Part shown: one piece after another, positions 25,184 through 63,706 of the stretch
How positions within the stretch are numbered: the first letter of the stretch is position 1
Layout: every line of letters begins with the position of its first letter
NCBI GenBank assembly: GCA_964648865.1
Contig: CAZYLV010000003.1
Location: 33,731-97,730, forward strand
Reading direction: 5' to 3'
From: an uncultured Gammaproteobacteria bacterium
Lineage (GTDB): Bacteria; Patescibacteriota; Patescibacteriia; 2-12-FULL-57-11
Length of the DNA: 64,000 nucleotides
Position numbers and translations under genes: made by a program
The notes under the pieces: model-generated
Database searches by the model: none
Seen by the model: the letters and a program-made list of their open reading frames with translations, nothing else
What the model was told of the DNA's origin: nothing

Positions 25184-27823
25184 ATGGCAAACGACCGTTT
25201 CACCAAGAAGGGCGACGAGGCCGTTCGCGCCGCGCGCGAGATCGCCGAGCGGCACCGGCACCGCGCCATCGACGACATGCATCTGCTCTCCGCGCTGGTC
25301 AGCCAGCCGGACGGGTTGGTCCCCGGCGTCCTGGAGCGCATCGGCGTCGATGTCGATGCGTTGCTCGAGGAGACCGACGAGCTCATCCACGAGGGCATGC
25401 CCCCGGGCGAGATCGTCTTCGGTACGACGCGCCGCCTGATCGACGCGCTCTCCGCCGCGGAGACGCTCTCCCAGGAGATGGGCGACCCGGTGGTCGGCAC
25501 CGAACACATGTTCCTCGGGCTGCTCGATAAGGGCGAGCGCCTCATTCCCCTCTTCCAGGACCACGGGGTGGACCGCAAGAGCTTCGAGGCGGCGCTCAAG
25601 GACGCCCGCGAGGCCGGGACGGGGCGAGCCCCGGAGCGCGAGGCGCCCAAGGTGCTCGAGAAGTACGGCCGCAACCTCACGGCACTGGCGCGGCAAAAGA
25701 AGCTCGATCCGGTCATCGGTCGCGACGACGAGATCCGCCGCGTCATCCAGGTGCTCAGCCGCCGCACCAAGAACAACCCGGTGCTGGTGGGCGAGGCCGG
25801 GGTCGGCAAGACGGCCATCGTCGAGGGCCTGGCCCAGCGCATCGCCTCAGGCGACGTACCCGAGTCGCTGGTCGACCGCGACGTCGTGGCGCTGGACCTC
25901 GGCGCCCTCGTGGCCGGCACCAAGTTCCGCGGCGAGTTCGAGGAGCGCCTCTAGGCCGTCATGAAGGAGATCGAGAAATCGAACGGCGGCATCATCCTCT
26001 TCATCGACGAGCTCCACACGCTCGTCGGCGCCGGCGGAGCCGACGGCGGCTCGCTGGACGCCTCCAACATCCTCAAGCCTGCGCTGGCCCGCGGCGAGCT
26101 GCACGCGATCGGCGCCACGACGCTGCGCGAGTTCCAGAAGCATATCGAGAAGGACCCCGCGCTGGAGCGGCGCTTCCAGCCGGTCATGGTCCATGAGCCG
26201 ACGGTCGAGGACACCATCGCCATGCTCCGCGGCATCAAGGAGAAATACGAGGTCCACCACGGCGTCAAGATCACCGACGCCGCCATCGTCGCCGCTGCCG
26301 AGCTCAGCCACCGTTACATCAACGACCGCTCCCTGCCGGACAAGGCCGTCGACCTCGTGGACGAGGCCGCCGCCGCGCTGCGCATGGACGTCGACAGCCA
26401 GCCCGTGGAGATCGAGCGCCTGCGCCGCGACGCCACGCGCCTGGAGATCGAGAAGCGCGCCCTGGAGGCCGAGGACGACCCGGCACAGGCCGAGCGCAAG
26501 ACCCAGGTCGGCCGCGAGCTGGTCGAGCTCAACGAACGCATCGCCGCGCTGGCCGCCAAGTGGACCAAGGAGAAGGAGATCGTCGGCGCGCTGCGCACGG
26601 CCCAAAAGGAGCTGGAACGCCTGCGCACCGAGAGCGACATCGCCGAGCGCCGCGGCGAGCTCGAGCAGGTCGCCGAGATCCGCTACGGCCGCATCCCGGC
26701 GCAGGAAAAGGCCATGGCCGCGCTCGAGGAGAAGCATCGCACCCAGAAGGGCGAACGCTTCATCAAGGACAAGGTCGGCGCCGAGGAGATCGCCGCGGTC
26801 GTCTCGCGCTGGACCGGCATCCCGGTCACCAAGATGCTCGAGACGGAACGGGAGAAGCTCCTGCAGCTCGAGGCCGGACTCGGCAAGCGCGTCGTCGGCC
26901 AGCCCGAGGCCATCGCCGCCGTGGCCAACGCGCTCCGCCGCAACCGCGCCGGGGTGAGCGAGGGCGAACGGCCCATCGGCTCGTTCCTCTTCCTGGGCCC
27001 AACGGGCGTCGGCAAGACGGAGCTGGCCCGCGCGCTGGCCGCCTATCTCTTCAACGACGAGACGGCCATGATCCGGGTGGACATGTCCGAGTTCATGGAA
27101 CGCCACGAGACGGCCAAGCTGATCGGTTCGCCGCCCGGCTACGTCGGCCACGACGAGGGCGGCCAGCTCACCGAGAAGGTCCGCCGCCGGCCGTACAGCG
27201 TGGTGCTCTTCGACGAGGTCGAGAAGGCCCATCCGGACGTCTTCAACCTGCTGTTGCAGATCCTCGACGACGGCCGGCTGACGGACGCCAAGGGCCGCCG
27301 CGTGAACTTCAAGAACACCGTCATCATCATGACCTCCAATGTCGGAAGCCGCTCGCTCAGCCAGGTCACGACCGGCGCGGCGTTGGGCTTCGCCGACGGC
27401 GACGGCGGGCAGGAACCGGAGCAGCGCATGCGCGAGAAGATCCGCGAGGAGCTCGAGGAGCGCTTCCGGCCGGAGTTCCTCAACCGCGTCGACGAGATCA
27501 TCACCTTCCATCCGCTCACGAGGACGCATATCGCCGACATCGTCGACGTGCAGCTCTCGCGGCTCGCCGAGCGGCTCAAGGAGCGCCGCGTCGCCGTGGA
27601 GGTGAGCGACGCCGCCAAGGCCTACCTGGCCGAGAAGGGCTACTCGCCGAGCTTCGGCGCCCGCCCGCTCAAGCGGCTCATCCAGACGGAGGTCGGCAAC
27701 CGCCTGGCCGAGGCATTGCTCAAGGGCGACATCGCCGAGGGCGACACGGCCGCGGTCGACGTCAAGAAGGACGCGCTGACCGTCAACCGCGCCCGCCGCA
27801 AGGTCAAGGCCGCCGTGGCCTGA
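25184..27823 (+). pseudogene. clpB: ClpB disaggregase, interrupted by a single in-frame TAG at 25952-25954 (conserved Lys position of ..[10 protein letters not shown]-..); otherwise intact
   Basis: Track ORFs 25184..25954 and 25961..27823 are contiguous ClpB in one frame. It carries an N-domain, NBD1 Walker A GEAGVGKT, a coiled-coil M-domain, NBD2 Walker A GPTGVGKTE and a sensor-2 region. TAG is a genuine stop elsewhere in this window. Confidence 0.85.
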
Positions 27824-32869: not shown

Positions 32870-33805
32870 ATGCGCATCGTCTTTTGGGGGACCTCGACCT
32901 TCGCCGTCCCGGCCTTGCGCGCGCTGCACGCCGCTGATGGCGTCGAGCTCGTCGCCGTGGTCACCCAACCGGACAAGCCGCACGGCCGTCATGGCGACAT
33001 CCTGCCGGGCCCCGTGGCCGCCGCCGCGCGAGAGCTCGGCCTGACGCTGCTCCAGCCGGAGACCGTGAGGGACGAGACGCTCCGGCAGACGCTCGAGGAT
33101 GCGGCGCCCGACGTCGCGGTCGTGGCCGCCTACGGCCGCATCATCCCGGAGGCGCTGCTGGCGATCCCGCGGCTGGGCACGCTCAACATCCACCCGTCAT
33201 TGCTGCCCCGCTGGCGCGGTCCCTCACCCATCCAGGCGGCCATCGCGCACGGCGACGCCGAGACCGGGGTGAGCATCATGCTGCTCGACGCCGAGATGGA
33301 CCACGGTCCCCTGCTCGCGCAGCGCCGCGTCCCGCTCTCCGGGACCGAACGGTACCCCACGCTCGAGACGCACCTTGCCGAGGTCGGGGCCGCGCTGCTC
33401 TTGGAGACGGTCCCGCGGTACGTCTCAGGCGGACTGCGACCCGTGTCGCAGGACCACGACCAGGCCGTCTTCTGCGGCATGCTGGACCGGGACAGCGGCC
33501 GCGTGGACTGGAGCGCGTCCGCCGTCTCCATCGCCCGTCTCGACCGTGCCTACGATCCGTGGCCCGGCATCTGGACCGAGTGGACCGACGGCACGGCGAC
33601 GCTGCGCGTCAAGCTCTTCGATGCGCGCGTCGAGGACGTGGTCGCCGACTTGGGAGCCCTGTCGCAGCGGCAGGACCGGCTCCTCGTGGGAGCCCATGCG
33701 GAATCCGTGTCCTTCGGCGAACTGCAGGTCGAAGGCAAGAAGCGCCTGACCCTCACGGAGCTGCTGCGCGGGATGCCGATGTTCCTGGACGGACGGTTCC
33801 GCTGA
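32870..33805 (+). CDS. fmt: methionyl-tRNA formyltransferase
   Basis: 311 aa. An N-terminal formyltransferase domain (..LNIHPSLLPRWRG..) and a C-terminal domain. The def-fmt order supports the call. Confidence 0.93.
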   Translation: MRIVFWGTSTFAVPALRALHAADGVELVAVVTQPDKPHGRHGDILPGPVAAAARELGLTLLQPETVRDETLRQTLEDAAPDVAVVAAYGRIIPEALLAIPRLGTLNIHPSLLPRWRGPSPIQAAIAHGDAETGVSIMLLDAEMDHGPLLAQRRVPLSGTERYPTLETHLAEVGAALLLETVPRYVSGGLRPVSQDHDQAVFCGMLDRDSGRVDWSASAVSIARLDRAYDPWPGIWTEWTDGTATLRVKLFDARVEDVVADLGALSQRQDRLLVGAHAESVSFGELQVEGKKRLTLTELLRGMPMFLDGRFR

Positions 33806-39693: not shown

Positions 39694-40218
39694 CTAGCGC
39701 TTGGAGAACTGCGGAGCGCGGCGGGCGGACTTGAGCCCGTACTTCTTGCGTTCCTTGACGCGCGCATCGCGCGTGAGGTAGCCCATCTTGCGCATCGTCG
39801 GCCGGAGCGCGTCGCTCATCTCCGTGAGCGCGCGGGCGATGCCGAGACGCACCGCCTCGGCCTGGCCGCGGATGCCGCCGCCCTTGACCAGCACGGAGAC
39901 GTCGAGGTTGGCGTCCTGGGCAGCCGCCTTGAGCGGGCCGAGCACGGTCCACTGCAGCTCCTCGACCGTGAAATAGCCCTCGTACGGCTTGCCGTTGACG
40001 ACGATCTTGCCCGTCCCCTTGCCGACGCGGACCTGGGCGACGGCCTCCTTGCGGCGGCCGATGGCACGGACGGTACCTTCCGCCGTGAGGACGACCGGGG
40101 CGGCCTCCTGCTCGGTCTTCGGCGCCTCGACCTTCTTTGTCACGGCAGGCTTCTTGGCCGCGCGCGGCGCGACGGCCTTCCTCGCCGCGGGCTTCTTGGC
40201 TGCGGTCTTCTTTTCCAT
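39694..40218 (-). CDS. rpsI: 30S ribosomal protein S9 with a ~55-aa Lys/Ala/Pro-rich N-terminal extension
   Basis: The C-terminus (..GGGIRGQAEAVRLGIARAL.. ..KKYGLKSARRAPQFSKR) is canonical S9. The extension is visible in the sequence. Confidence 0.93.
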   Translation of the reverse strand: MEKKTAAKKPAARKAVAPRAAKKPAVTKKVEAPKTEQEAAPVVLTAEGTVRAIGRRKEAVAQVRVGKGTGKIVVNGKPYEGYFTVEELQWTVLGPLKAAAQDANLDVSVLVKGGGIRGQAEAVRLGIARALTEMSDALRPTMRKMGYLTRDARVKERKKYGLKSARRAPQFSKR

Positions 40219-40220
40219 AA

Positions 40221-40580
40221 TCAGGCGCTGATCTTCAACCGCTTCATGCGGGGTGCGCGCAGCTTGTTGTGCGGCAGCATGTTGAGCACGGCCTTGCGCA
40301 CGACCTCGGTCGGCTTCTGGGCCATGAGGCGCGCGTAGGGCGTCTCTTTGAGCCCGCCCTGATAGCCGGTGTAGTGCTTGTAGACCTTCTGGTCGGCCTT
40401 CTTGCCGGTGACGCGGACCTTGGCGGCGTTGGTCACCTCGACGATGTCGCCGCCGTCGACGTGCGGGGCATAGCCCGGCTTGTGCTTGCCGATGAGCAGC
40501 GTGGCGATGCGGGTGGCCATGCGGCCGAGCGTCTGGCCGGAGGCGTCGATGGTGTGGGTGGCGCGGACGATCTTCTGCAT
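40221..40580 (-). CDS. rplM: 50S ribosomal protein L13 (short, 119 aa)
   Basis: Internal Met of track ORF 40221..40808. L13 motifs (..GRMATRIA..GKHKP.YAPH.D.GD..). Confidence 0.9.
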   Translation of the reverse strand: MQKIVRATHTIDASGQTLGRMATRIATLLIGKHKPGYAPHVDGGDIVEVTNAAKVRVTGKKADQKVYKHYTGYQGGLKETPYARLMAQKPTEVVRKAVLNMLPHNKLRAPRMKRLKISA

Positions 40581-40581
40581 A

Positions 40582-40932
40582 TCAGACCAATTCGAGCATG
40601 ACCATCTCCGCGGCATCGCCCTGGCGGCGGCCGATCTTGGTGATGCGGGTGTAGCCTCCGGCGCGCGCCTGGTAGCGCGGACCGAGCACCTCGAGCACCT
40701 TCTTGACGGCGCCCTCGGTGTAGAGCTGCTCGGCCAGGCGGCGGCGCGTGGCCACCGAGCTCTCCTTTCCGGTGGTGATGAGGCGCTCCACCAGCGGCTG
40801 CACGGCATGCGCCTTGGCCTTGGTGGTACGGACCCGCTCGTAGAGCACGACGCTCGTGGCCAGCCCGCGGAGCAACGCCTCGCGGGGGCCTTTCACGCGT
40901 CCCAGGATTTTTCCGGTCTTCCGGTGCCGCAT
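40582..40932 (-). CDS. rplQ: 50S ribosomal protein L17
   Basis: 116 aa. Begins MRHRKTGKILGR as L17 does. The upstream R-rich part of the track ORF is excluded. Confidence 0.92.
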   Translation of the reverse strand: MRHRKTGKILGRVKGPREALLRGLATSVVLYERVRTTKAKAHAVQPLVERLITTGKESSVATRRRLAEQLYTEGAVKKVLEVLGPRYQARAGGYTRITKIGRRQGDAAEMVMLELV

Positions 40933-40933
40933 A

Positions 40934-41773
40934 TCAGGAGGACTTCTTCTTGGCCTTCTTCTTGGGCGCCTCCTCGCCCGCTTCCTCGACCTCGGCGGTC
41001 TCCTCGGCCGGCGCCTCCTCAAGCTCCGGCGCCTGGGCCATCATGGTGTCGTCGGCGACGATGTCCGTGGAGCCGTCGCCGGCGCCTTCCAGCCCGTTGA
41101 GCAGGCTGAAGTGGCGCAGCAGGATCTTGTTGGCCTCGAGCACGGCGTCCTTGGGCGTGATGGTGCCGTCGGTCTCGATGGTCATCATCAGCTTGTCGTA
41201 GTTGGTGATGTCGCCGACGCGGGTGTTCTCCACCTGGAAGCCGACGGTGCGGACCGGGGAGAACAGGGCGTCCACGGCGATCGTGCCGAGCTCCATCTTC
41301 TCCTTGTCGCGCTCCTCGGTGGGACGCCAACCGCGGCCGCGCTCGACGGTCACCTCCATCTCGAGCGAGCCCTTCTTGTCCGTGATGGTGCACAGGTGCA
41401 GGTCCGGATTGGCGATCTCGACCTGGGCATCCTTGGAGAAGTCTCCGGCCGTGACGTCGCGTTCGCCGTCCACGGAGAGGGTCAGCTTGACCGGCTCCTC
41501 GGAGAAGGACGAGATGCGCACCTGCTTGAGGTTGAGGATGAGCTCGAGCACGTCCTCCTTGACGTCGGGGATGGCCGAAAACTCGTGCTGCACGCCCTTG
41601 ATGCGCACCGCGGTGATGGCGGCACCGGGCAAGGAGGACAGCAGGGCACGGCGCAGGGCGTTGCCGATGGTCGTGCCGTAGCCCTGGGTGAACGGTTCCA
41701 CGACGAGCATGGCCTCGTTGGCGTGGCTCCCGGGGCGCAGCTCGATCTTGGACGGGTAGAGGATGTCCTCCAT
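40934..41773 (-). CDS. rpoA: DNA-directed RNA polymerase subunit alpha, N-terminal domain only (no alpha-CTD)
   Basis: 279 aa. Alpha-NTD motifs (..EPFTQGYGTTIGNALRR..). It ends in an acidic/Lys-rich tail (..EEAPAEETAEVEEAGEEAPKKKAKKKSS). No helix-hairpin-helix CTD is encoded. Confidence 0.9.
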   Translation of the reverse strand: MEDILYPSKIELRPGSHANEAMLVVEPFTQGYGTTIGNALRRALLSSLPGAAITAVRIKGVQHEFSAIPDVKEDVLELILNLKQVRISSFSEEPVKLTLSVDGERDVTAGDFSKDAQVEIANPDLHLCTITDKKGSLEMEVTVERGRGWRPTEERDKEKMELGTIAVDALFSPVRTVGFQVENTRVGDITNYDKLMMTIETDGTITPKDAVLEANKILLRHFSLLNGLEGAGDGSTDIVADDTMMAQAPELEEAPAEETAEVEEAGEEAPKKKAKKKSS

Positions 41774-41774
41774 A

Positions 41775-42386
41775 TTAGCGGCTATAGAATTCGACGATGA
41801 CCTTGGGGTCGAACGGCTGGCGGAGCTCCTCGCCTGCCGGTTCGGCGACGACCTTGCCGGAGAAGGCGGCGGCGTCCAGCGAGAGCCAGCTCGGGAGCTG
41901 GGCGTCCTTGATCCGCTCCGTGAGGTCGCCGAACAGCGGCGACTTCCGGATGCGCTCGCGCACCGAGACGACGTCGCCGACGCGCACCTGCGCGCTCGGG
42001 ACGTCCACGCGCGTGCCGTTCACCTCGAAGTGCCCGTGCGAGACCATCTGGCGGGCCTGGCGGCGGTTGGCGGCGAAGCCCAGGCGGAAGACCACGTTGT
42101 CCAGGCGCATCTCGAGCATCCGGACGATCATCTCGGCGGTGTTGCCACGGGTCTTGGAGGCCTTCTTGAAATAGTTGAAGAACTGGCGCTCGTTGACGCC
42201 GAAGATGTGCTTGGCCATCTGCTTCTCGCGCAGCTGGAGCGCGAAGGGGGTCAGACGCGGACGGCGGCTCGGCCCGTGGGCGCCCGGCGGGAAGCTGCGG
42301 CGCAGCGCGGCGCACTTCTTGCGTCCGCAGAGCGAGACGCCGGCGCGGCGGCAAGGTTTGCAGGTGTTGGCGAGGGTGCGCGGCAT
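41775..42386 (-). CDS. rpsD: 30S ribosomal protein S4
   Basis: 203 aa. An N-terminal Cys4 zinc finger (CKPCRR...CGRKKC) and an S4 domain. Confidence 0.95.
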   Translation of the reverse strand: MPRTLANTCKPCRRAGVSLCGRKKCAALRRSFPPGAHGPSRRPRLTPFALQLREKQMAKHIFGVNERQFFNYFKKASKTRGNTAEMIVRMLEMRLDNVVFRLGFAANRRQARQMVSHGHFEVNGTRVDVPSAQVRVGDVVSVRERIRKSPLFGDLTERIKDAQLPSWLSLDAAAFSGKVVAEPAGEELRQPFDPKVIVEFYSR

Positions 42387-42390
42387 AGGA

Positions 42391-42861
42391 TCAGATGCGG
42401 CGGGCGCCCGGCGCGCGGCAGCCGTTATGCGGGATCGGCGTGACGTCCTTGATGGAGGTCACGGTCAGCCCGTTGGCGTTGAGGGCGCGCACCGCGCCTT
42501 CGCGGCCGGCGCCGATGCCCTTGACGAAGACCGAGACCTCGCGCAGCCCGACGTCCTTGAGGCGGTCGCAGACGTCCTTGACCGTGACGGAGGCGGCGTA
42601 CGGCGTGGCCTTCTTGGGGCCGGTGAAGCCCATCTTCCCGGAGGACGACCAGCCCAGCACGTTGCCGTTGGCGTCGGCCAGGGTGACGATGGTGTTGTTG
42701 TAGGTGGCCTGGATGTAGGCGCGGCCGATCGGGACCGTGCGCACGGCCTTCTTGCGCCGCGCGCGCGGCGCGGCCTTCTCCTTCTTGGCGCCCGTGCCCT
42801 CCGTGGCGGGGGTCTCGGCGGCGGGCGCGGCGGTGGTCGTCTCGAGTTCGTCCATAGTCAT
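42391..42861 (-). CDS. rpsK: 30S ribosomal protein S11
   Basis: 156 aa. Conserved S11 core (..GIAHIQATYNNTIVT-like, ..TPIPHNGCR.. C-terminus). Confidence 0.95.
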   Translation of the reverse strand: MTMDELETTTAAPAAETPATEGTGAKKEKAAPRARRKKAVRTVPIGRAYIQATYNNTIVTLADANGNVLGWSSSGKMGFTGPKKATPYAASVTVKDVCDRLKDVGLREVSVFVKGIGAGREGAVRALNANGLTVTSIKDVTPIPHNGCRAPGARRI

Positions 42862-43256
42862 CAGGTCTTGAGGCCGGCCTTGACGCGACCGCTGCCCATC
42901 GTCTTGCGGACGTTGCCGCGCACGGTGCGGGAGTTGGTCTTGGTGCGCTGGCCACGGACCGGCAGGCGCTTGATGTGGCGCGTGCCGCGCCAGCTGCCGA
43001 TCTCCTTGAGCCGCTTGATGTTGCTGAGCGTCTCACGGCGCAGCTCGCCCTCCACACGGAAGGTCTTCTCGATGAACTCACGCAGACGGTTGACCTCGTC
43101 CTCGGTCAGCGTCTGGACGCGCTTGGTGCCGTCGATCTTGGTCTTGTCCAAGGCTTCGGCGGCTCGATGCGCCCCGACGCCGTGGATGTACTGCAAGGCG
43201 ACCAAGGTGCGCTTGTTCTGCGGGAGCGTGATACCGGCGATGCGTGCGACAGCCAT
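42861..43256 (-). CDS. rpsM: 30S ribosomal protein S13
   Basis: 131 aa. Begins MAVARIAGI (third Met of the track ORF), as S13 does. Confidence 0.93.
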   Translation of the reverse strand: MAVARIAGITLPQNKRTLVALQYIHGVGAHRAAEALDKTKIDGTKRVQTLTEDEVNRLREFIEKTFRVEGELRRETLSNIKRLKEIGSWRGTRHIKRLPVRGQRTKTNSRTVRGNVRKTMGSGRVKAGLKT

Positions 43257-43272
43257 AATCAAGAGATGCGGC

Positions 43273-43388: not shown

Positions 43389-43619
43389 TCAGTACCGATA
43401 GATGATGCGGCCTTTGGTGAGGTCGTACGGCGTGAGTTCGACTTTCACCTCATCGCCCGGAAGGATGCGGATGCGATGCATGCGCATGCGACCCGAGAGG
43501 TGGCCGATGATGGTGTGTCCGTTCTCCAACGTGATCTTGAACGCCGCCGCGGGCAGCATCTCGATCACTTTGCCGCGGACCTCGATGAAGTCCTTGGACG
43601 GACTCTGCTGTTCACCCAT
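43389..43619 (-). CDS. infA: translation initiation factor IF-1
   Basis: 76 aa. An S1-like OB fold (..[26 protein letters not shown]..). Confidence 0.95.
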
Positions 43620-43708: not shown

Positions 43709-43737
43709 ACTATACCGGTTGCCGGAAATCCCGTCAA
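43709..43737 (-). promoter_or_regulatory. sigma70-like promoter for the infA-rpmJ-rpsMKD-rpoA-rplQ operon (TTGACG-N17-TATAGT on the minus strand)
   Basis: Near-consensus hexamers about 90 nt upstream of infA. The 5' leader contains a G/C-rich stem (CCCCC..GGGGGG). Coordinates approximate. Confidence 0.5.
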
Positions 43738-43781: not shown

Positions 43782-45635
43782 TCATGCTCCGGAGGGACCC
43801 GCCACGGTGGCCTTGATGCGTCGGATTCCGGCGGCCACGGCTTCTTCCTTCTGGATCCTGAAGCTCCCCAGCTCCCCGGTGTGGGTGACGTGCGGTCCGC
43901 CGCAGATCTCCACGGAGTAGTAACCCTTCTCCGGGCTGCCGGCGCGGTAGACCTTCACCTTGCCGCCGATTTGGGCGTACTTGTCGTCGAAGTAACCGAT
44001 GGCTCCGGCGGCCTTGGCCTCCTCCGTGGTCATCTCCACGTATCCCATCGGCAGGTCGTCGGCGATGGCTTTGTTGACCATGTCCTCGACGGCCTTGATC
44101 TCCTCAGGCGTCATCTTCTGCGGGTGCGTGAAGTCGAACCGCAGCCGCTCGGCGGTGATGTTGCTCCCCTTCTGCTGCACGTGCTCGCCGAGCACGTTCT
44201 TGAGCGCGCGGTGCAGGAGGTGGGTCGCGGTGTGCAGGCGCGTCGTCTCCGCGGAGCTGTCGGCCAGCCCGCCCTTGAAGACGCCGGCCGCCGCACGCGA
44301 CTTCTCCTGGTGCGCACGGAACTCGTCCCAAAAACCAGGCTCGTCCACGCCGCGCCCGCGCTCCTTGGCCAGCTCGACGGTCATCTCGAGCGGGAATCCG
44401 TAGCTCTGGAAGAGGTCGAAGGCGTCCTTGCCGGCGATCGTCTCGGTCGCGCTGGACTCCTCGGCGAGCCGCTCGAACGCCGCGAGCCCGCGCTCGATGG
44501 TCCGTTCGAACTTCTCCTCCTCCTTGCTGAATTCGGCCAGGATGGCGTCCCGCTTCTCCCGCAAGTTGGGATACGCGTCGCCGTAGAGGTCGATGACCAC
44601 GTCGAGCAGTCCCGCCAGACGGTTCTGCCCGAAGCCGAGCGTGCGGCCGTACCGGATGGCGCGGCGGATGAGCCGGCGCAGGATGTAACCGCGGTCGACG
44701 TTGGTCGGCACGACGCCATCGGAGAGCATGAAGCAGGCCGTGCGCACGTGGTCGGCCACGATGCGCTCGGCGCGGTCGTCGCGGCTCCCCGCCTCCCGGG
44801 CGATCCAGTCCATGAGCGGCGAAAAGAGATCCGTCCCGAAGACCGTGCGCTTGCCCTGCATGACCATGGCGATGCGCTCCAGCCCCATGCCGGTGTCGAC
44901 GTTCTTCTGGGTCAGCGGCTCGAAGCGCCCGTCCTCCGTCTTGCGGTACTCCATGAAGACGTCGTTCCAGACCTCAATGAAGCGTCCGCAGTCGCAGTTG
45001 GGATGGCAGCGCTCGCCGAAGGCCGCGTCGTGCGGCGTCCCCAAATCGATGAACATCTCGGTGTCCGGACCGCACGGGCCGGTCTGCCCGGCCGGACCCC
45101 ACCAGTTCTTGCTCTTGCCGTAGGGATAGATGCGCGCACCGCTGCCGATATCCGGTGCGGCGGCGTCCCCTACCGTGGCGTCGATGCCGACGGAGCGGAA
45201 GCGCTCCTGCCAGACGCGGATGGACTCCTCGTCCTTGGGCGCGTCCTCGTCGCCCGAAAAGACGGAGACATACAGACGCTGCGGGTCGATGCCGAGCCAC
45301 TCCGTGCCGGTGAGGAAGGTGAAGCTCCACTCGATGGCTTCCTTCTTGAAGTAATCGCCCAATGACCAGTTGCCGAGCATCTCGAAGAACGTGTCGTGGC
45401 GGTTGTCACCGACCTCGTCGATGTCCTGCGTGCGGACGCACTTCTGGACGTTGGCAAGCCGCTTGCCGCCCGGGTGCGGCTCGCCGAGCAGGTACGGGAC
45501 AAGCGGATGCATCCCGGCCGTGGTGAACAGCACGGTCGGGTCGTTCTCGGGCACCAGCGAGGCGCTCGGGATGATGGTATGGCCGCGCTCCTCGAAGAAG
45601 CGCAGGAACAGCTGGCGAAGTTCGGCACCGGTCAT
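43782..45635 (-). CDS. alaS: alanine--tRNA ligase, short form (catalytic, tRNA-recognition and editing domains; no C-Ala domain)
   Basis: 617 aa. N-terminal class II AlaRS motifs. Editing-site motifs HTATHLLH and CGGPH. Confidence 0.92.
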   Translation of the reverse strand: MTGAELRQLFLRFFEERGHTIIPSASLVPENDPTVLFTTAGMHPLVPYLLGEPHPGGKRLANVQKCVRTQDIDEVGDNRHDTFFEMLGNWSLGDYFKKEAIEWSFTFLTGTEWLGIDPQRLYVSVFSGDEDAPKDEESIRVWQERFRSVGIDATVGDAAAPDIGSGARIYPYGKSKNWWGPAGQTGPCGPDTEMFIDLGTPHDAAFGERCHPNCDCGRFIEVWNDVFMEYRKTEDGRFEPLTQKNVDTGMGLERIAMVMQGKRTVFGTDLFSPLMDWIAREAGSRDDRAERIVADHVRTACFMLSDGVVPTNVDRGYILRRLIRRAIRYGRTLGFGQNRLAGLLDVVIDLYGDAYPNLREKRDAILAEFSKEEEKFERTIERGLAAFERLAEESSATETIAGKDAFDLFQSYGFPLEMTVELAKERGRGVDEPGFWDEFRAHQEKSRAAAGVFKGGLADSSAETTRLHTATHLLHRALKNVLGEHVQQKGSNITAERLRFDFTHPQKMTPEEIKAVEDMVNKAIADDLPMGYVEMTTEEAKAAGAIGYFDDKYAQIGGKVKVYRAGSPEKGYYSVEICGGPHVTHTGELGSFRIQKEEAVAAGIRRIKATVAGPSGA

Positions 45636-52938: not shown

Positions 52939-53384
52939 GGGCGGCTGAGGTTCTCGGAAATCAGGGACTCGATGTCGTCGACCCAACGGGCGTCGCCCGG
53001 CGTCGGCTCCTCGTCTTGCCGAGGAGCGGCCGGGGGGAGTGCCCGCGCATCGGACCGCGGCAGGGATGGCCGTGCGAAGGCACCGCGGATGAAGGCGGCC
53101 GCGGCGCGGTCGGCGGCGTCGGCGACCTCGATGCTGCCGAGCGCCACTCTCCCCCACCACAACGCCGCCGTCTCGGAGACGCGGAAGGCGAACTCGTCCC
53201 AGGCGGCGACGCCTCGGGTGAGTGCGCTGCGCGCATCGGCCAGCGGGTGCCAGCGGGAGACGGTCTGGACCGCGCGCCACGGCGCGGCCGCCACGTCGAT
53301 GCGCAGGTCCTCGAAGCCGCGCGCCGCGACAGGTGCGGGCAGGAGCACGGCGGCAAGCAGTACGGCGACGACGACCCCCCTCAT
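52935..53384 (-). CDS. small secreted protein (149 aa, signal peptide MRGVVVAVLLAAVLLPAPVAARG)
   Basis: Internal Met of track ORF 52935..53867. Its ATG overlaps the upstream ATPase stop (ATGA) and its stop overlaps the next gene's start by 4 nt. Confidence 0.5.
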   Translation of the reverse strand: MRGVVVAVLLAAVLLPAPVAARGFEDLRIDVAAAPWRAVQTVSRWHPLADARSALTRGVAAWDEFAFRVSETAALWWGRVALGSIEVADAADRAAAAFIRGAFARPSLPRSDARALPPAAPRQDEEPTPGDARWVDDIESLISENLSRP

Positions 53385-55150
53385 GGCTGCGGCGGTCCGT
53401 CGAATTCGACCACTTCGCCCGGCGCCGGGCGGCCGCTCTTGGCCGAGAACGGCACCGGCTCCTGCTCCTTGAGCGCGGCAAGCGGCGCCGGCGGCTGCGC
53501 GGCCTCCTCGACGCGCTTGCGCTCGTCCTTGACGATCTTGAAGCAGTCGTCGCAGTAGTACGGGCGGCTGGGGTCCGGCTGGAAGGTCAGCTGGAGCTTC
53601 TTGCCGCAGCGTGCGCATGTGGCGTCGTGGAGCTTCTTGGCTTGCTTCGCCGGGGCGGGCGCCGACTTCTCGCCAGCGGGCGCCGGCTGGGGCGCGGGCG
53701 CTGCGGGCCTCGGGGCAGGCCGGGCAGGCGACGCGCTGCGGGGCGGCATCCGCCGCGCGGGAGCGGCGGATGCGGCACGCGGCGCCGGTCGCGGCGCGGC
53801 GCCCGTACGCGCGGGGGACGCGGCCGGCGTGCTGACGAAGGTCTCCCCGCCCGCCAGCCCGGACCACTGCAGGATCTTCTCCTCGATGACGGCGCGCGGC
53901 GTGGCGTAGCGCTCCCGCGACACCTTGATGACCTTGTCCGTGCTGCCGGTGCGGACGTTGATGGGCGGCAGCGTATTGGCGGAGAAGATCTCCGAGGCCA
54001 CGCCGTCGATCATCAGTTTGACGTAGACCTCGAACTTGGTGAGGTTGACAAGGTCCTCCGGCAGGAAACGCGGCGCCACCTCCTGCTCCAGGAACAGGGC
54101 GTCCGAGGCGCCGACGCGGAAGAAGACCATCGTGCCGACGTTGCCGAAGACGGCCGGCCGCACGTAGTCCTCGTCGAGCTGCTCGATGTACTGGTGGGCG
54201 ATGACCAGGTTGAGCCGGTACTTGCGCGCCTCGGAGAGGATGTTGGCGAAGCTGGCCGTGGCGAAGTTCTGGAACTCGTCGACGTACAGGTAGAAGTCGC
54301 GGCGGTCCTCCTCCGGCATGTCGACGCGCTCCATGGCGGCGAGCTGCAGCTTGGTGATGAGCATGCCGCCGAGCAGGCGCGAGGAGTCCTCGCCGATGCG
54401 GCCTTTGGCCAGGTTGATGATTAGGATCTTGCCCTCGTCCATGACCTGCCGCATGTCGATGGTCGACTTCACCTGGGCCACGATGTTGCGGATGATGGTC
54501 GCCGCCAGGAACTGTCCGACCTTGTTCTGGATCGGGGCGATGGCCTCGTTGCGGAAGCGGTCCTCCCAGCGCGCGTACTCGTCCTGCCAGAAGGCCTTGA
54601 CCACCGGATCCCTGACCACCGCGAGCACGCGCTTGCGGAACTCCTTGTCCACGAGGATGCGGTTGATGCCGAGCAACGTCGAGCCGGGGTACTCGAGCAG
54701 CGTCAGGATGCAGTTGTTGAGGATGTGCTCCATCCGCGGGCTCCAGACGTCGGGCCAGATCTTCTTGAAGACGCCCATCAGGCCCTGGGCCGCGAGCGGC
54801 CGGGTGCGCTCGTCCACGGCCTCGAGCACGTTGAAGCCGATCGGGAAGTCGAGGTCGGCCGGGTTGAAGTAGACGACGTCGTTGATGCGGTGCGCCGGGA
54901 TGAAATCCAGGAGCTTCTCGGCGGTGTCGCCGTGCGGGTCGACGTAGGCCACGCCATGCCCCGCGGCGATGTCGTTGAGGATCATGTTCTCGAGCAGGGT
55001 CGTCTTGCCCATGCCCGTCTTGCCGAGCACGTAGACGTGCCGGCGGCGGTCGTCGGTCTTGATGCCGAACTTCCGCCGGGCGTTGCGGAAGTTGGTCTCG
55101 GCGAAGAAGTTGATCTCGCTGTCGTGGTCGTGGTCGTACTGCAGCGCCAT
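53381..55150 (-). CDS. type IV secretion coupling-protein-like ATPase (VirD4/TraG/TraD family, soluble) with a Pro/Ala-rich linker and C-terminal C4 zinc ribbon
   Basis: 589 aa. Walker A LGKTGMGKTTL and Walker B LYVDEFQNF. A T4CP C-terminal signature (..IAHQY.. ..FGNVGTMVFFRVG..). A C-terminal zinc ribbon CARCGKK...CDDC. No N-terminal TM helices. Confidence 0.75.
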   Translation of the reverse strand: MALQYDHDHDSEINFFAETNFRNARRKFGIKTDDRRRHVYVLGKTGMGKTTLLENMILNDIAAGHGVAYVDPHGDTAEKLLDFIPAHRINDVVYFNPADLDFPIGFNVLEAVDERTRPLAAQGLMGVFKKIWPDVWSPRMEHILNNCILTLLEYPGSTLLGINRILVDKEFRKRVLAVVRDPVVKAFWQDEYARWEDRFRNEAIAPIQNKVGQFLAATIIRNIVAQVKSTIDMRQVMDEGKILIINLAKGRIGEDSSRLLGGMLITKLQLAAMERVDMPEEDRRDFYLYVDEFQNFATASFANILSEARKYRLNLVIAHQYIEQLDEDYVRPAVFGNVGTMVFFRVGASDALFLEQEVAPRFLPEDLVNLTKFEVYVKLMIDGVASEIFSANTLPPINVRTGSTDKVIKVSRERYATPRAVIEEKILQWSGLAGGETFVSTPAASPARTGAAPRPAPRAASAAPARRMPPRSASPARPAPRPAAPAPQPAPAGEKSAPAPAKQAKKLHDATCARCGKKLQLTFQPDPSRPYYCDDCFKIVKDERKRVEEAAQPPAPLAALKEQEPVPFSAKSGRPAPGEVVEFDGPPQP

Positions 55151-55153
55151 ACG

Positions 55154-56635
55154 CTAGACCGGAAGGTTCTCGGGCGGCGCGCCGGTGCCGGCCTGGGAGG
55201 GCGCCGGCTGCTGCTTGGGGCGGATCGGCGGGGCCGCGGGCTCCACGGGCAGACGCAGCGGCGGCTCGGCGCGCTTGGACTCGGCCTTCTTGACGGTCGG
55301 GGTCTTCACCAGGAGCGACGGGAAGTGCCAGAGCGACGCCAGCTCCTCGGTCGACAGGATGTAGGGCGTGGCGCCGCGGAAGTTATGCCGGTACTTGTAC
55401 GCCCAGAAGATGGACTTGATGCGCTCGTTGGTCGTCTTGTAGAACGTGCCGGACAGGTAGAAGAAGATCGGATTGAGCTGCCAGAAGTAATCGTACTTGG
55501 TGGTCACCGGGCCGTAGAAGCCGAGCTTGTTGAGGTTGAGGGTGGTGAACTGCTGCAGCGCGCCGCGCACGAAGGAGATGATCGTGCCGGTGCGGAAGTT
55601 CTTCTTGGGGGCGATGTAGATGAAGCGGATCTTGGTCTTGAGCCCGATCTTGGAGAGCTTCTGCTCGACGCGCTCCACGACGAACCGCTCGCCCGGGGAG
55701 AGGTGCAGCATCTGGGAGCGCGGCTCCTCCTTCTTCTGCTGCGGTTTGGCCGGCTCGCCGCCGATCAGCCCGGAGACGCCGATGTCCAGCGCTTGGAGCG
55801 GCAGGTCCATGGCCTTGTCGAGCGCCGTCACCTTGGGCGCGACCTTGGCGCCGATGAGCTTCTTGACCAAGGTCTCGCCGGCGTCCTTCCAGTCCTGGCT
55901 GCAGGTCGTCACCAGGATCTGCAGCCAGACCTGCTCGCCCGCGCCCAGCTTGGCCAAGCCCTCGAGCAGACCGGCCATGGGATCCTTGAACTCGCCCGAG
56001 ATGGGATCGCTGAAATCGAGGTAGGTCTTGATGGGGTAGAACTCCGGCTTGCTCGGCACGAACTCCGAGCCGAAGAAACCCCACTCCTTGTTCGGCCAGG
56101 GCCACTGCTGCGGCACGTTGAGCACGTAGTCCTCGACCTCGGTGATCTCCGCCTCGGGATACTGCGCGTAGATGGTGGCCTCGACGAGGTCGCGGTACTT
56201 CTCCCAGACGCGCACCAGGAACTGCACGTACCCTTCGATGGAGACGATCTCGAAGCTGAAGACGGGCGGCATCTTGCCGTCCCAGAACCGCTCCTTGCGC
56301 GTGAAGCTGGAGTGCGCGCCGAGGAGTTGGGCGAAGATGTTCTCGACGGCCTTGGGTGTCTGCTCCGTGGACTTGGGCACGTCGACCGCCAAGAGCACCG
56401 GGTTGACCGAGTTGATGAACAGGAACTGGCGCTCGTTGATCCAGATCCACCAGAAACCGCGCAGGAAGACGATGAGTACGGGGATCCAGCCGCCGGCGCG
56501 GAACAGCTCCCACATGACGATCACCGGATGCTGGGCGCCGAGCCAGTCGATATACGCCAGAAAGGCACCGACGTCGATGGAGATCATCGGCATATGCGCA
56601 ACCAGTATAACACAGGAAAGACAAAGGAGGGGCAT
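55154..56635 (-). CDS. membrane protein (493 aa): N-terminal TM helices plus a large soluble domain; partner of the T4CP-like ATPase
   Basis: Track ORF. A hydrophobic N-terminus (..WIPVLIVFLRGFWWIWI..). No family recognised. Separated from the ATPase gene by 3 nt. Confidence 0.6.
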   Translation of the reverse strand: MPLLCLSCVILVAHMPMISIDVGAFLAYIDWLGAQHPVIVMWELFRAGGWIPVLIVFLRGFWWIWINERQFLFINSVNPVLLAVDVPKSTEQTPKAVENIFAQLLGAHSSFTRKERFWDGKMPPVFSFEIVSIEGYVQFLVRVWEKYRDLVEATIYAQYPEAEITEVEDYVLNVPQQWPWPNKEWGFFGSEFVPSKPEFYPIKTYLDFSDPISGEFKDPMAGLLEGLAKLGAGEQVWLQILVTTCSQDWKDAGETLVKKLIGAKVAPKVTALDKAMDLPLQALDIGVSGLIGGEPAKPQQKKEEPRSQMLHLSPGERFVVERVEQKLSKIGLKTKIRFIYIAPKKNFRTGTIISFVRGALQQFTTLNLNKLGFYGPVTTKYDYFWQLNPIFFYLSGTFYKTTNERIKSIFWAYKYRHNFRGATPYILSTEELASLWHFPSLLVKTPTVKKAESKRAEPPLRLPVEPAAPPIRPKQQPAPSQAGTGAPPENLPV

Positions 56636-56665: not shown

Positions 56666-57562
56666 CTAGCGTCTGGCGGACCAGCGCTGCCAGGTCACGA
56701 GCAGCGGTGACGCCAGGAACATGGAGGAATAAGTGCCGACGCTGATGCCGATGATGAGCGCCAGGACGAACATCCGGGTGGACGCGCCGCCGAAGAGCGC
56801 CACGGCGGCCAGGACCAGCAGGGTCGTGAGCGAGGTGTTGAGCGAGCGGACGAAGGTCTGCCGCACGGAATCGGCGACCACCTGCTCGAAGTCGCCGGCA
56901 CCGCGGCGCCGCAGGTTCTCCCGGACGCGGTCGAAGACCACGATGGTGTCATGGACCGAGAAGCCGAGCACGGTCAGCAGCGCCGTGACGAAGAGCACGT
57001 CGACCTCGACCCCGGCGAAGGTCCCCAGCGCGGCGAAGACGCCGGTCGGGATGAGGACGTCGTGGATGAGCGCGACGATGGCCACGAGGCCGTACTTCCA
57101 GGAGGCCACCGGCTTGGAGACGTGGCGGAAGACGAAGGCGATGTACAGCACGATGGCGAGCACCACCAGCGCGATGGCACGCAGCGAGCGGCCGCGCAGC
57201 TCCGAGCCCACCGACGGTCCCACGGTCTGGTAGGACAGCTCGGCGACGGCGGCCTCGTCTTCGCCGCGCAGCGCCGCGAGCAGCGCCTTGCGGCTGGCGT
57301 CGTCCGTGGCCTGGTAGCGCAGGTTGGCCTCGCGCTCCCCCACCGGCTGCACCAGCACCGTGCCGATGCCCGCGCCGGCGGCCGCGGCCTCGATCTCCTG
57401 CACCGCAGGGCGGCCGTGCGCGAACTCCACCTGCAGCAGCGAGCCGCCGGTGAAGTCGATGCCCAAGCGCAGCCCCCAGACGCCGATCGCCAGGAGCGAC
57501 GCGGCCACCAGGATGCCGGAGATGGCGTACCAGAGCTTCCTCAATCGGATGATGTTCGGCAT
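56666..57562 (-). CDS. secF: protein translocase subunit SecF
   Basis: 298 aa. Motif ..GIDFTGGSLLQVEF.. and six TM helices. Confidence 0.93.
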   Translation of the reverse strand: MPNIIRLRKLWYAISGILVAASLLAIGVWGLRLGIDFTGGSLLQVEFAHGRPAVQEIEAAAAGAGIGTVLVQPVGEREANLRYQATDDASRKALLAALRGEDEAAVAELSYQTVGPSVGSELRGRSLRAIALVVLAIVLYIAFVFRHVSKPVASWKYGLVAIVALIHDVLIPTGVFAALGTFAGVEVDVLFVTALLTVLGFSVHDTIVVFDRVRENLRRRGAGDFEQVVADSVRQTFVRSLNTSLTTLLVLAAVALFGGASTRMFVLALIIGISVGTYSSMFLASPLLVTWQRWSARR

Positions 57563-57572
57563 AGGGATGGCG

Positions 57573-59321
57573 TCAGCCCTTCCGGACGCCCACGAGCCAG
57601 GCGTGCTTCTCCATCCACGGCCCGGCGATCGACAGCAGGAAGCCGCGCGTCACGAGGATGGCCGTGAACATGGACACCAGGATGCCGATGGCCAGCGTCA
57701 CGGCGAAGCCCTTGACCAGCGAGGTGCCGAGCCAGACCAGGATGGCGCAGGTGATGAGCGAGGAGACGTTGGAGTCGCGGATGGACAGCCAGGCGCGGCG
57801 GAAGCCCTCCTCGATGGCCTCGCGCACCGGCTTGCCGGACCGCAGCTCCTCCTTGAACCGCTCGAAGATGAGGATGTTGGCGTCCACGGCCATGCCGATG
57901 GACAGGATGAACCCGGCGATGCCCGCGAGCGTCAGCGTGACGTCGATACCCTTGAAGACCGCCAGGGTGAGCGCCGCGTAGACGGCCAGCGCCAGCGAGG
58001 CCACGAGCCCCAGGAAGCGGTAGAAGACGAGCATGAAGGCCACGACCAGCGCGAAGCCGATGAGCCCTGCCATGAGCGACTTCTCGAGCGAGGCGGCGCC
58101 GAGCGTCGGGCCGACGGTCTGCTGGGTGATGAGCGAGATGGGCACGGGGAGCGCGCCGGCGTTGAGGTTGCGCACCATCTGCTTGGCCTCGGGGATGGTG
58201 AAGGTGCCGGTGATCTGCGCCTCGCCGCCGAGGATCTCCTGCTGGACGATGGGGTCGGAGAGCTTGACGCCGTCCAGGAAGATGGCCAGCGGCCGGCCGA
58301 CGTTGCGCTTGGTGATGTCGGCGAACAGCTGGGCGCCCTCGGCGTCGAACTGCAGGCCGATCTGCACCGCACCCGTCTGCTGGTCGAAGAGCACGTTGGC
58401 GCGCTTGAGGTTCTTGCCGGTCAGGCCGCTGCCCTTCCATTCCTCGGGCGGGACGATGTCCGTCTCCGCGAGCTTGCCGATGAGGATGTGGCTGGCCTGC
58501 CATTCCGGCACGGTCGAGCCGAGGGTCTCGCCCTCCGTCGTCTCGACCTCAGGTCCTGCGACCTCGCGCTCGTCGGTCTTGAGGATGACGTGGTACCCGA
58601 ACTCCGTGGCCACCGGCGTCTTGGTGTATGCGCCCTTCTCGAGCCCGTCGACGGCCTGCTGGAACGCCGGAATCATCGCGCCTTGGCCGAACCAGCCCAG
58701 GTCGCCGCCCTGCTCCTTGCTGCCCGGGTCGTCCGAGAGTTCCTTGGCGAGCGCGGCGAAGTCCTCGCCCGCGTCGAGACGCGCGATGACCTCCTCGGCC
58801 TTCTTCTTGGCATCGGCGTCGCTCTCGGCGAGCTGCTGCCGCTCCTCTTCCGTGAGGGCGCGCGACGGCTCGGTGCTGACTTCCTTGAATTCCAGGAGCG
58901 GCGTCTCGCCGATCTTGCGGATGGCCTCCTCGACGTCCAGGATGCCGGCCAGGTCCACGATCAGCCGGTGGTCGTCGCCGACGATGGCCGTCTGCACCAG
59001 CGGCTCGGAGACGCCGAAGGCGTTGACCCGGCGCTCGATGACCTCACGGAGCCCGTTCAACTGCTCGCGCCGCTCGCCCTCGATGATGCCGGACATGTCG
59101 GCCTGGTAGACGAGATGCGAGCCGCCCTGCAGGTCGAGCCCGAGGCGGAACGGTTTGCTCGGGAAGCCGGCCACCGGGTACGCGAAGAGCGCGGCCAGGA
59201 CGCCGAACAGGATGACGCCCGCGGACAGCGCGCGGAAGCGCAGCGCGCCGCCGCGGAAGAACGAGGCCAACGGCGGACCGGATTTCCTGGAGGACTGGGG
59301 ATTCGCCATATCGCGCGGCAT
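57573..59321 (-). CDS. secD: protein translocase subunit SecD
   Basis: The start is taken at the Met (MPRDMANPQ...) of track ORF 57573..59465. Motif ..LGLDLQGGSHLVY.., a periplasmic domain and C-terminal TM helices. Confidence 0.9.
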   Translation of the reverse strand: MPRDMANPQSSRKSGPPLASFFRGGALRFRALSAGVILFGVLAALFAYPVAGFPSKPFRLGLDLQGGSHLVYQADMSGIIEGERREQLNGLREVIERRVNAFGVSEPLVQTAIVGDDHRLIVDLAGILDVEEAIRKIGETPLLEFKEVSTEPSRALTEEERQQLAESDADAKKKAEEVIARLDAGEDFAALAKELSDDPGSKEQGGDLGWFGQGAMIPAFQQAVDGLEKGAYTKTPVATEFGYHVILKTDEREVAGPEVETTEGETLGSTVPEWQASHILIGKLAETDIVPPEEWKGSGLTGKNLKRANVLFDQQTGAVQIGLQFDAEGAQLFADITKRNVGRPLAIFLDGVKLSDPIVQQEILGGEAQITGTFTIPEAKQMVRNLNAGALPVPISLITQQTVGPTLGAASLEKSLMAGLIGFALVVAFMLVFYRFLGLVASLALAVYAALTLAVFKGIDVTLTLAGIAGFILSIGMAVDANILIFERFKEELRSGKPVREAIEEGFRRAWLSIRDSNVSSLITCAILVWLGTSLVKGFAVTLAIGILVSMFTAILVTRGFLLSIAGPWMEKHAWLVGVRKG

Positions 59322-59500
59322 GGTAACGGATGCCGCGGCATCCCTGCAAGCTTGGGCACTTGCCAAGCCCTGGAGGCGTGGTAGGTTGGGAGTGGTCACG
59401 GCATGCCCCGCCCCACCCCAACTACCCCGGGGTTCGCCGCGACCCCGCCGCTTCCGGTCTCGCAACCCTCCCCCCGAGAGACCGTGGAACGGCGGTTTTT

Positions 59501-63214: not shown

Positions 63215-63706
63215 TTACTTGCGCACGGACTCCAGCCACTCGTTGAACGCGCGGTAGAAGGCGCCGTTCTTCTCCAGGTCCGCGCGGATCTCGTCGGCGT
63301 CGCCCGCCTTATCCATGATTTCCGCGCTCTTCTCGAGCGAGTACGTCTCGCGCACCGGAACGGCGATGGTCGTGTCGGAAACGCCGTCCCAATCGTTGAC
63401 CGCGAAGATGCTCCGCAGTCCAGAATCCCAGGTTGGGTCGACGATCTTCCACGCATCTCCGACCTTCACTTCGAGATAGACATGTGTGGATTCATCCTCG
63501 TGCGGAACAGCTGCGACCGACTCGGGCAACTTCACATCGCTCCAGCGGAACGTGACGACGCGATAACGCGCCTCGACCCCGGCCGCCTTTAACGCCTCAA
63601 GCAGCCGCTTCGCTTTGCCCGAGCAGCAGTCATCCGGTTCCGCCACGGCCAGCGGGATGCGGTATGGGATGTCGCGAATTTCCCGGAACGACAAAACCGT
63701 GTCCAT
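63215..63706 (-). CDS. transglutaminase-like Cys-protease-fold protein (163 aa)
   Basis: Internal Met. A C...H...D arrangement (..DCCSGKAKRLLEALKAAGVEARYV.. ..HVYLEVKVGDAWKIVDPTWD..). Confidence 0.55.
   Translation of the reverse strand: MDTVLSFREIRDIPYRIPLAVAEPDDCCSGKAKRLLEALKAAGVEARYRVVTFRWSDVKLPESVAAVPHEDESTHVYLEVKVGDAWKIVDPTWDSGLRSIFAVNDWDGVSDTTIAVPVRETYSLEKSAEIMDKAGDADEIRADLEKNGAFYRAFNEWLESVRK

Follow-up and report, generated by a model that had tools for sequence, protein, structure and literature searches.

In the canonical α subunit (RpoA) of bacterial RNA polymerase, as known from Escherichia coli and Bacillus subtilis, an N-terminal domain (NTD; PF01193 and PF01000) is followed by a C-terminal domain (CTD; PF03118), a helix-hairpin-helix module of roughly 80 residues. 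The NTD suffices for dimerization and for assembly of β and β′, and the CTD binds the minor grooves of UP elements and σ region 4 and is the docking site for class I and class II activators. The CTD is the textbook hub of transcription activation, serving UP elements, CRP-type class I/II activators and a large number of response regulators, and is essential for viability in E. coli. When truncated to the NTD in the laboratory (α-235 and α-256 of the Ishihama laboratory), E. coli α reportedly still supports core assembly and factor-independent transcription in vitro, and cells are said to be unable to live on the truncations alone. Here we describe the rpoA gene of a 64-kb stretch of DNA (hereafter the window; positions 33,731 to 97,730 of contig CAZYLV010000003.1, deposited as an uncultured Gammaproteobacteria bacterium and placed by GTDB in Patescibacteriota). 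Its product shares with canonical RpoA an orthologous NTD, the gene slot between rpsD and rplQ and the NALRR assembly motif, but in place of the CTD it has a 48-residue disordered tail that is acidic and ends in a Lys patch. The gene and its parts are:

40934..41773, minus strand: rpoA, an ATG-start open reading frame of 279 aa plus TGA stop with PF01000 and PF01193 only; CTD-less RNA polymerase α subunit
41081..41773, minus strand: α N-terminal domain, residues 1-231, the predicted platform for dimerization and β/β′ assembly (AlphaFold2; B. subtilis alignment)
40967..41080, minus strand: acidic disordered linker, residues 232-269, GDGSTDIVADDTMMAQAPELEEAPAEETAEVEEAGEEA, with 14 D/E and 0 K/R in 38 aa (37% D/E)
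40937..40966, minus strand: basic C-terminal patch PKKKAKKKSS, residues 270-279, with 6 K in 10 aa

Both NTD families score above their cut-offs (PF01000 over residues 56-172, E 8e-33, 113.6 bits; PF01193 over residues 26-222, E 1e-24, 86.4 bits), and the NTD aligns with residues 17-232 of B. subtilis α at E 4.6e-61. The NCBIfam equivalog models for rpoA are also passed (NF003519, 292.5 vs 277 bits; TIGR02027, 268.1 vs 227.8 bits), with the match confined to the first ~240 (to about 241) of 298-344 model positions, and alignments with solved α structures in the PDB cover only residues ~3-250 of the window protein. PF03118 gives no match to the 279-aa product even at E≤10, so that the CTD on a flexible linker that typifies the RpoA family is absent. 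In an AlphaFold2 model built from a 26-sequence alignment, residues 1-231 are predicted with confidence (predicted local distance difference test score, pLDDT, mostly >90), and for the 48 residues of the tail (232-279) no secondary structure is predicted, at pLDDT <50. Across the 26 relatives aligned, the NTD is conserved and its NALRR motif (R41/R42) does not vary. An initial annotation, made from the DNA letters alone, had described an NTD-only α with an acidic, Lys-rich end, and the domain searches and residue counts agree with it on both points.

That annotation had also placed no CTD nearby, which two six-frame searches of the whole 64-kb window bear out. Neither E. coli and B. subtilis CTD queries (best E=0.14) nor an 80-sequence CTD profile that takes in divergent CTDs of the candidate phyla radiation (CPR) (best E=0.12, inside rpsM) found a CTD there; the E. 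coli and B. subtilis queries are validated by a positive control, in which they detected a CTD in 60/60 complete non-CPR rpoA genes. The match at 63400-63552 (E=0.14) was rejected as being at chance level and was not recovered by the profile search, and the match inside rpsM (E=0.12) is likewise at chance level. The gene at 40934..41773 is the sole rpoA-like gene of the window.

The same architecture extends through a large group of relatives. All 120 of the nearest 90%-identity clusters in a collection of 5.8 billion proteins are 231-297 aa long and carry the two NTD families only; those of the best 120 that are named belong to 'Patescibacteria group', Uhrbacteria or Parcubacteria. A pattern scan over GTDB species, each represented by a single genome, gave at least 80 loci, made up of 19 CPR loci, 60 complete non-CPR loci and 1 cut off by a contig end. 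Among the matches listed, the CTD is absent in 19/19 CPR species representatives, whose α subunits are 232-273 aa long, and is present in 60/60 complete non-CPR loci, the control in the same scan (E 1e-14 to 1e-42). The 3 kb on either side of rpoA were found to contain no CTD at any of the 19 CPR loci. The titles of these loci include Uhr-, Falkow- and Veblenbacteria as well as 'Patescibacteria group', and in several cases 'uncultured Gammaproteobacteria' or 'bacterium'; the closest taxon-named relatives of the window genome, itself of Patescibacteria (CPR) and GC-rich, are Uhrbacteria, Falkowbacteria and Veblenbacteria. Six loci (L004, L010, L011 and L016-L018) are titled 'uncultured Gammaproteobacteria bacterium', yet have a CPR-type CTD-less rpoA whose product is 56-63% identical to the window protein, and are probably mislabelled.

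The loss is not CPR-wide. In a profile search, 80 of the best 150 50%-identity cluster representatives carry a CTD, and by cluster names the CTD-bearing Patescibacteria include Giovannonibacteria (326 aa), Paceibacterota (309 aa) and 'Patescibacteria group' (346 aa). The NTDs of such α subunits (P0156 of Giovannonibacteria, P0168 of Paceibacterota, and P0130) belong to the same broad lineage as that of the window protein, at 47-50% identity, but these proteins keep a divergent, recognizable CTD (E 1e-6 to 1e-12 against the E. coli and B. subtilis CTDs) and are without a basic terminus. Uhrbacteria and Giovannonibacteria both lie within NCBI's Parcubacteria group, and a CTD is kept as well at a locus labelled Rickettsiaceae (L053). 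In a neighbor-joining tree of 339 NTDs, the window protein falls in a clade of 142 sequences, every one of them CTD-less, and other CTD-less, basic-tailed sequences are interspersed among CTD-bearing CPR sequences. The latter pattern hints that the CTD was lost several times independently, in a tree of a single protein at about 45-50% identity that is weak for counting losses. Three cluster representatives, P0122 (569 aa), P0126 (526 aa) and P0133 (664 aa), have two alpha-like stretches or an α fused to extra sequence, which may reflect tandem genes, gene fusions or errors of gene calling.

As judged from these comparisons, CTD loss is specific to clades: it marks one large clade, possibly a few others, and is general neither to reduced genomes nor to Patescibacteria. 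It occurred in an ancestor of the large clade and not by recent mutation, and CTD absence can serve as a clade marker inside the Parcubacteria group. The initial annotation had called the loss expected for a reduced-genome lineage. Because other Patescibacteria keep a divergent CTD, and a Rickettsiaceae-labelled locus does so too, genome reduction as a general cause is not upheld; the functional implication drawn there, loss of the CTD-mediated contacts with UP elements and activators, follows from the established role of the domain and does stand.

The integrity of the gene is documented by its surroundings. rpoA is housed in the canonical cluster infA-rpsM-rpsK-rpsD-rpoA-rplQ-rplM-rpsI, in which the order rpsM-rpsK-rpsD-rpoA-rplQ is the position conserved for RpoA. 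In the direction of transcription the neighbors are:

43389..43619, minus strand: infA (IF-1), first gene of the cluster (PF01176)
42861..43262, minus strand: rpsM (S13; PF00416)
42391..42861, minus strand: rpsK (S11; PF00411)
41775..42386, minus strand: rpsD (S4), directly 5′ of rpoA with a 1-nt gap (PF00163 and PF01479)
40582..40932, minus strand: rplQ (L17, 116 aa), starting 1 nt past the rpoA stop (PF01196, E 1e-31; same call in Logan contigs)
40221..40580, minus strand: rplM (L13, 119 aa), 3′ of rplQ (PF00572; the 119-aa call is taken from Logan contigs)
39694..40218, minus strand: rpsI (S9), last gene of the run, with a 53-aa K/A-rich N-terminal extension (PF00380, residues 54-174)

The possibility that a frameshift, premature stop or misassembly cut short a normal rpoA has to be considered, as fragmented rpoA genes are known on some error-prone contigs, and nothing in its favor was found here. 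The junctions are tight on both sides: rpsD/rpoA reads CGC TAA T ATG and rpoA/rplQ reads TCC TGA T ATG (TGA at 40936-40934, rplQ ATG at 40932-40930), each with a 1-nt gap, and the slot where a CTD-coding segment or a split CTD reading frame would lie is occupied by rplQ. In the two remaining frames, the 3′ end of rpoA reads as GC-rich noise with nothing CTD-like. Because rplQ begins 1 nt away and neither of these frames is CTD-like, a frameshift at the 3′ end, raised as a concern in the initial annotation, and an adjacent split CTD are both excluded. Assembly error is excluded because the identical 279-aa protein, with the same rpsD, rplQ and rplM neighbors at the same spacing, occurs in four independent Logan assemblies from four sequencing runs. 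The architecture also recurs in 139 orthologues, and the probability of an artefact is negligible. The rpoA of the window is an intact, native gene, and annotators can treat the 230-297-aa α subunits of this clade as complete genes, not partial ones. As a second alternative, the CTD could be the product of its own gene at another place in the genome and join the polymerase in trans. Short PF03118-only reading frames are indeed present in public data, and in one Paceibacterota cluster the NTD (220 aa) and the CTD (84 aa) are in reading frames of their own. However, in every case examined the CTD frame lies directly between the NTD frame and rplQ, as in a broken or recoded rpoA, and in the window that gap is 1 nt. 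The empty searches of the 64-kb window and of the flanks of the 19 related loci also speak against a CTD in trans, as does the fact that we know of no mechanism by which a free CTD would attach to RNA polymerase. We regard this alternative as very improbable, though less so than an artefact.

A CTD alignment used to query the protein database returned only proteins of ≤151 aa, many of them on very short contigs. The two on long contigs, P0325 and P0339, were rejected as evidence for a CTD in trans, being pieces of fragmented rpoA just before rplQ. Their CTD-only frames lie between an rpoA-NTD fragment and rplQ (L085 3398-4369 and L086 3531-4306, on JGI contigs of 325 kb and 164 kb), and both contigs have rpsK and rpsD in pieces as well as rpoA, which may be due to error-prone assembly or an alternative genetic code. 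In the Paceibacterota rpoA cluster P0168/P0284/P0288, some gene calls give a 309-aa α with CTD and others a 220-aa NTD with an adjoining 84-aa 'alpha CTD domain-containing protein'. At the exact stop position of the 220-aa version, the 309-aa version reads W, which implies that a TGA lies in frame where NTD and CTD meet; this may be due to recoding, to read-through or to a true split, the last of which could be an intermediate toward CTD loss.

The charged tail is the second distinguishing feature of the window protein. At least 5 K/R occur in the last 15 residues of 101 of the 120 close homologues (mean 7.4), and the linker ahead of this basic end has about 30% D/E and 4% K/R. The tetrapeptide KPKK is present in 60 of 139 sequences, commonly as (D/E)KPKK. 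In the full set of 350 α subunits, 6 or more of the last 15 residues are K/R in 137 of the 210 CTD-less proteins vs 6 of the 140 CTD-bearing ones. Across these sequences, then, the acidic-then-basic layout is conserved and strongly associated with CTD loss, a pattern at odds with the initial annotation insofar as it took the tail for a mere remnant. In ten CTD-less proteins (P0080, P0089, P0092, P0100, P0127, P0129, P0184, P0245, L010 and L015) the end is of the KKRGRPKK type, which contains the canonical AT-hook core. No clear relation was seen between tail type and GC content of the locus. In CTD-bearing CPR α subunits the linker is 4-47 aa long and in some cases acidic (for example in P0130), and a history in which the CTD was deleted, the linker retained or expanded and a basic end gained is therefore plausible. 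Besides the acidic-plus-basic tail and a plain acidic stub, a third C-terminal type was observed, consisting of tail-less CPR α subunits of 232-236 aa that end roughly in L-K-D-L-T-Y-S-E (L004, L006, L008, L011, L013, L016, L017 and L019).

The explanation that we favor, and consider probable, is that the window encodes a native CTD-less α that acts as an assembly scaffold only and bears a tethered polycationic arm which may touch upstream DNA. Going by the established roles of α, the NTD would still dimerize and scaffold β and β′, and the enzyme would be unable to read UP elements through an α-CTD or to be recruited by activators that dock there. Within the tail, the acidic segment would be a flexible spacer, possibly also an autoinhibitory partner, and the terminal Lys patch a tethered polycation making non-specific contact with DNA upstream of the -35 element. 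The Lys arm could thus take over, in minimal form, the DNA anchoring done by an α-CTD, without its docking of activators. This assignment of spacer and DNA-touching polycation is tentative and on balance doubtful, although it leads the alternatives for the tail. Its best support is the AT-hook variants in relatives, the AT-hook being a minor-groove binder of AT-rich DNA, the same mode that the α-CTD uses at UP elements. The broader proposition, that a large Patescibacteria clade, or possibly several clades independently, swapped the α-CTD for an arm, polycationic or of AT-hook type, tethered through a long acidic spacer, is somewhat less likely still.

Several observations weigh against this explanation. 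Little or no tail is found in 19 of the 120 close relatives and almost none in 14 of the 19 species representatives among the matches listed, so that many lineages can dispense with the tail. The Pfam AT_hook model (PF02178) scores below threshold in relatives (7.9-11.2 bits vs 17.4), with model positions 1-11 of 13 matched in four of them, and the window tail itself is a plain Lys run, PKKKAKKKSS, in which the G-R-P core and the R-G-R-P of an AT-hook are absent. Lys/Ala/Glu-rich low-complexity extensions are also borne by rpsI and rpsK of this genome, so that a tendency to charged, disordered extensions may be a general feature of its protein composition; these N-terminal extensions are 45-53 aa long, the S9 domain beginning at residue 54 of rpsI (39694-40218, minus strand) and the S11 domain at residue 46 of rpsK (42391-42861, minus strand). 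The AAG-rich 3′ end of rpoA, whose AAGAAG run ends 10 nt ahead of the rplQ ATG, might be partly constrained as a ribosome-binding region, and a distant stand-alone CTD gene beyond the 64-kb window is formally possible. Much of this is also evidence for another view, in which the CTD is truly lost and the tail is a functionless leftover or expanded interdomain linker with low-complexity drift, and in which nothing but composition, or the overlap with the translation-initiation region of rplQ, favors the terminal lysines. The tail-less relatives, the ribosomal protein extensions, the AAGAAG run and the linkers already present in CTD-bearing CPR α subunits all suit it. But the acidic-then-basic order and (D/E)KPKK persist at 54-78% identity to the window protein and at locus GC from 0.42 to 0.69, the basic terminus is 15-fold enriched in CTD-less α subunits and occurs on several separate branches of the neighbor-joining tree, and a ribosome-binding site takes about 6 nt, not 8-15 Lys/Arg codons. 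We hold a functionless tail to be unlikely. A different function is conceivable if the polyanionic segment is the working part, a nucleic-acid mimic like the acidic C-terminus of the Bacillus δ subunit (RpoE) that would sweep non-specific DNA or RNA off the enzyme and sharpen promoter selectivity, with the Lys patch folding back to tune it. The composition (a 38-residue stretch with 37% D/E and no K/R, then a Lys tract) and the predicted disorder fit such a role. The order is reversed relative to δ, in which the K-tract comes first, the AT-hook in some relatives points to DNA contact by the basic end and not to self-masking, and the length of the acidic linker varies; taken together these make the δ-like role distinctly improbable.

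Presence of the NTD and absence of the CTD, combined with the established roles of the two domains, indicate that the enzyme should assemble and transcribe without UP-element reading or α-CTD-dependent activation. Regulation would then have to run via σ, β/β′ surfaces, repression or promoter strength. One promoter candidate precedes the cluster:

43709..43737, minus strand: σ70-like promoter candidate TTGACG-17-TATAGT, upstream of infA (consensus match only)

The AT fraction at -59 to -38 of this site is 0.36, with no A/T-rich UP-like sequence upstream, and that of 8 unvalidated promoter-like sites in the window is 0.31, equal to the window background, in a comparison that is underpowered (n=8). 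GC content is 64-75% all along the window, unusually high for a Patescibacteria genome, and only 7 runs of ≥6 consecutive A/T occur in it. No tRNA genes or Rfam matches were found in the 64-kb window, so there is no rRNA or tRNA promoter in it to inspect. The CRP/FNR activator family is absent from the CPR clade in a published survey (PMC12531629). This absence and the flat upstream AT content are consistent with a lack of UP-element or class I activation.

Other features of the window were noted in passing. A ClpC/ClpB-type ATPase is present as two consecutive plus-strand reading frames with a 6-nt gap, 25184-25954 (256 aa; Clp_N repeats and the start of an AAA domain) and 25961-27823 (620 aa; AAA_lid_9, AAA_2 and D2-small), which may be a split gene or contain an in-frame stop. 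SecD (57573-59465, minus strand, 630 aa) contains, inserted between its P1 subdomains, a rotamase domain (peptidyl-prolyl isomerase of PPIC type, residues 211-298), and lies next to SecF (56666-57562). A VirD4/TraG-like type IV coupling protein with a treble-clef zinc finger near its C-terminus adjoins a 493-aa reading frame without a Pfam match (53381-55150 and 55154-56635, both minus strand). The 617-aa product of alaS (43782-45635, minus strand) has the catalytic and SAD editing-associated domains and no C-Ala/DHHA1 match, and is thus another housekeeping protein that is seemingly C-terminally shortened in this genome.

An important consequence of a species-rich natural clade with only CTD-less α subunits is that a bacterial RNA polymerase can work without the α-CTD hub, a module usually treated as universal. 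The conserved acidic-plus-basic tail, with its AT-hook in some members, is a candidate, simple and open to testing, for a minimal anchor on upstream DNA. If the proposed replacement of the CTD holds, the α-CTD/UP-element/class I activator system is not universal in Bacteria, and the arm would be a different, activator-independent way for a bacterial RNA polymerase to hold upstream promoter DNA. A full-text literature search of incomplete coverage returned no paper on α-CTD loss in Patescibacteria or on a naturally CTD-less bacterial α.

Among known systems, an alpha-like assembly platform without an α-CTD is also found in archaeal Rpo3 (subunit D) and in eukaryotic Rpb3-AC40. The archaeal D/L pair is a heterodimer, whereas bacterial α is a homodimer encoded in a bacterial operon, and the window protein scores far below the models for the D/Rpb3-type subunits (NF001988, 34.7 vs 153 bits; NF011548, 14 vs 194 bits). 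By sequence and gene context it is a bacterial RpoA and not an archaeal D/Rpb3-type subunit. In the Firmicutes δ subunit (RpoE), a HARE-HTH domain is followed by a K-tract and then by an acidic disordered region. The likeness to the tail, an RNA polymerase-attached polyanionic disordered region plus a short Lys tract, is one of composition only; δ is another protein with another fold, the window protein lacks the HARE-HTH domain and has the opposite basic/acidic order, and there is no evidence of homology. With the HMGA-type AT-hook that ends ten of its relatives, the window protein shares position and basic character only. The nearest functional parallel may be the E. coli α-235 and α-256 truncations, which are likewise NTD-only and whose behavior in core assembly and factor-independent transcription we infer for the window protein as well. 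Those truncations are laboratory constructs, whereas the α subunit of the window is of a type that serves a natural lineage as its only α and carries a conserved charged tail.

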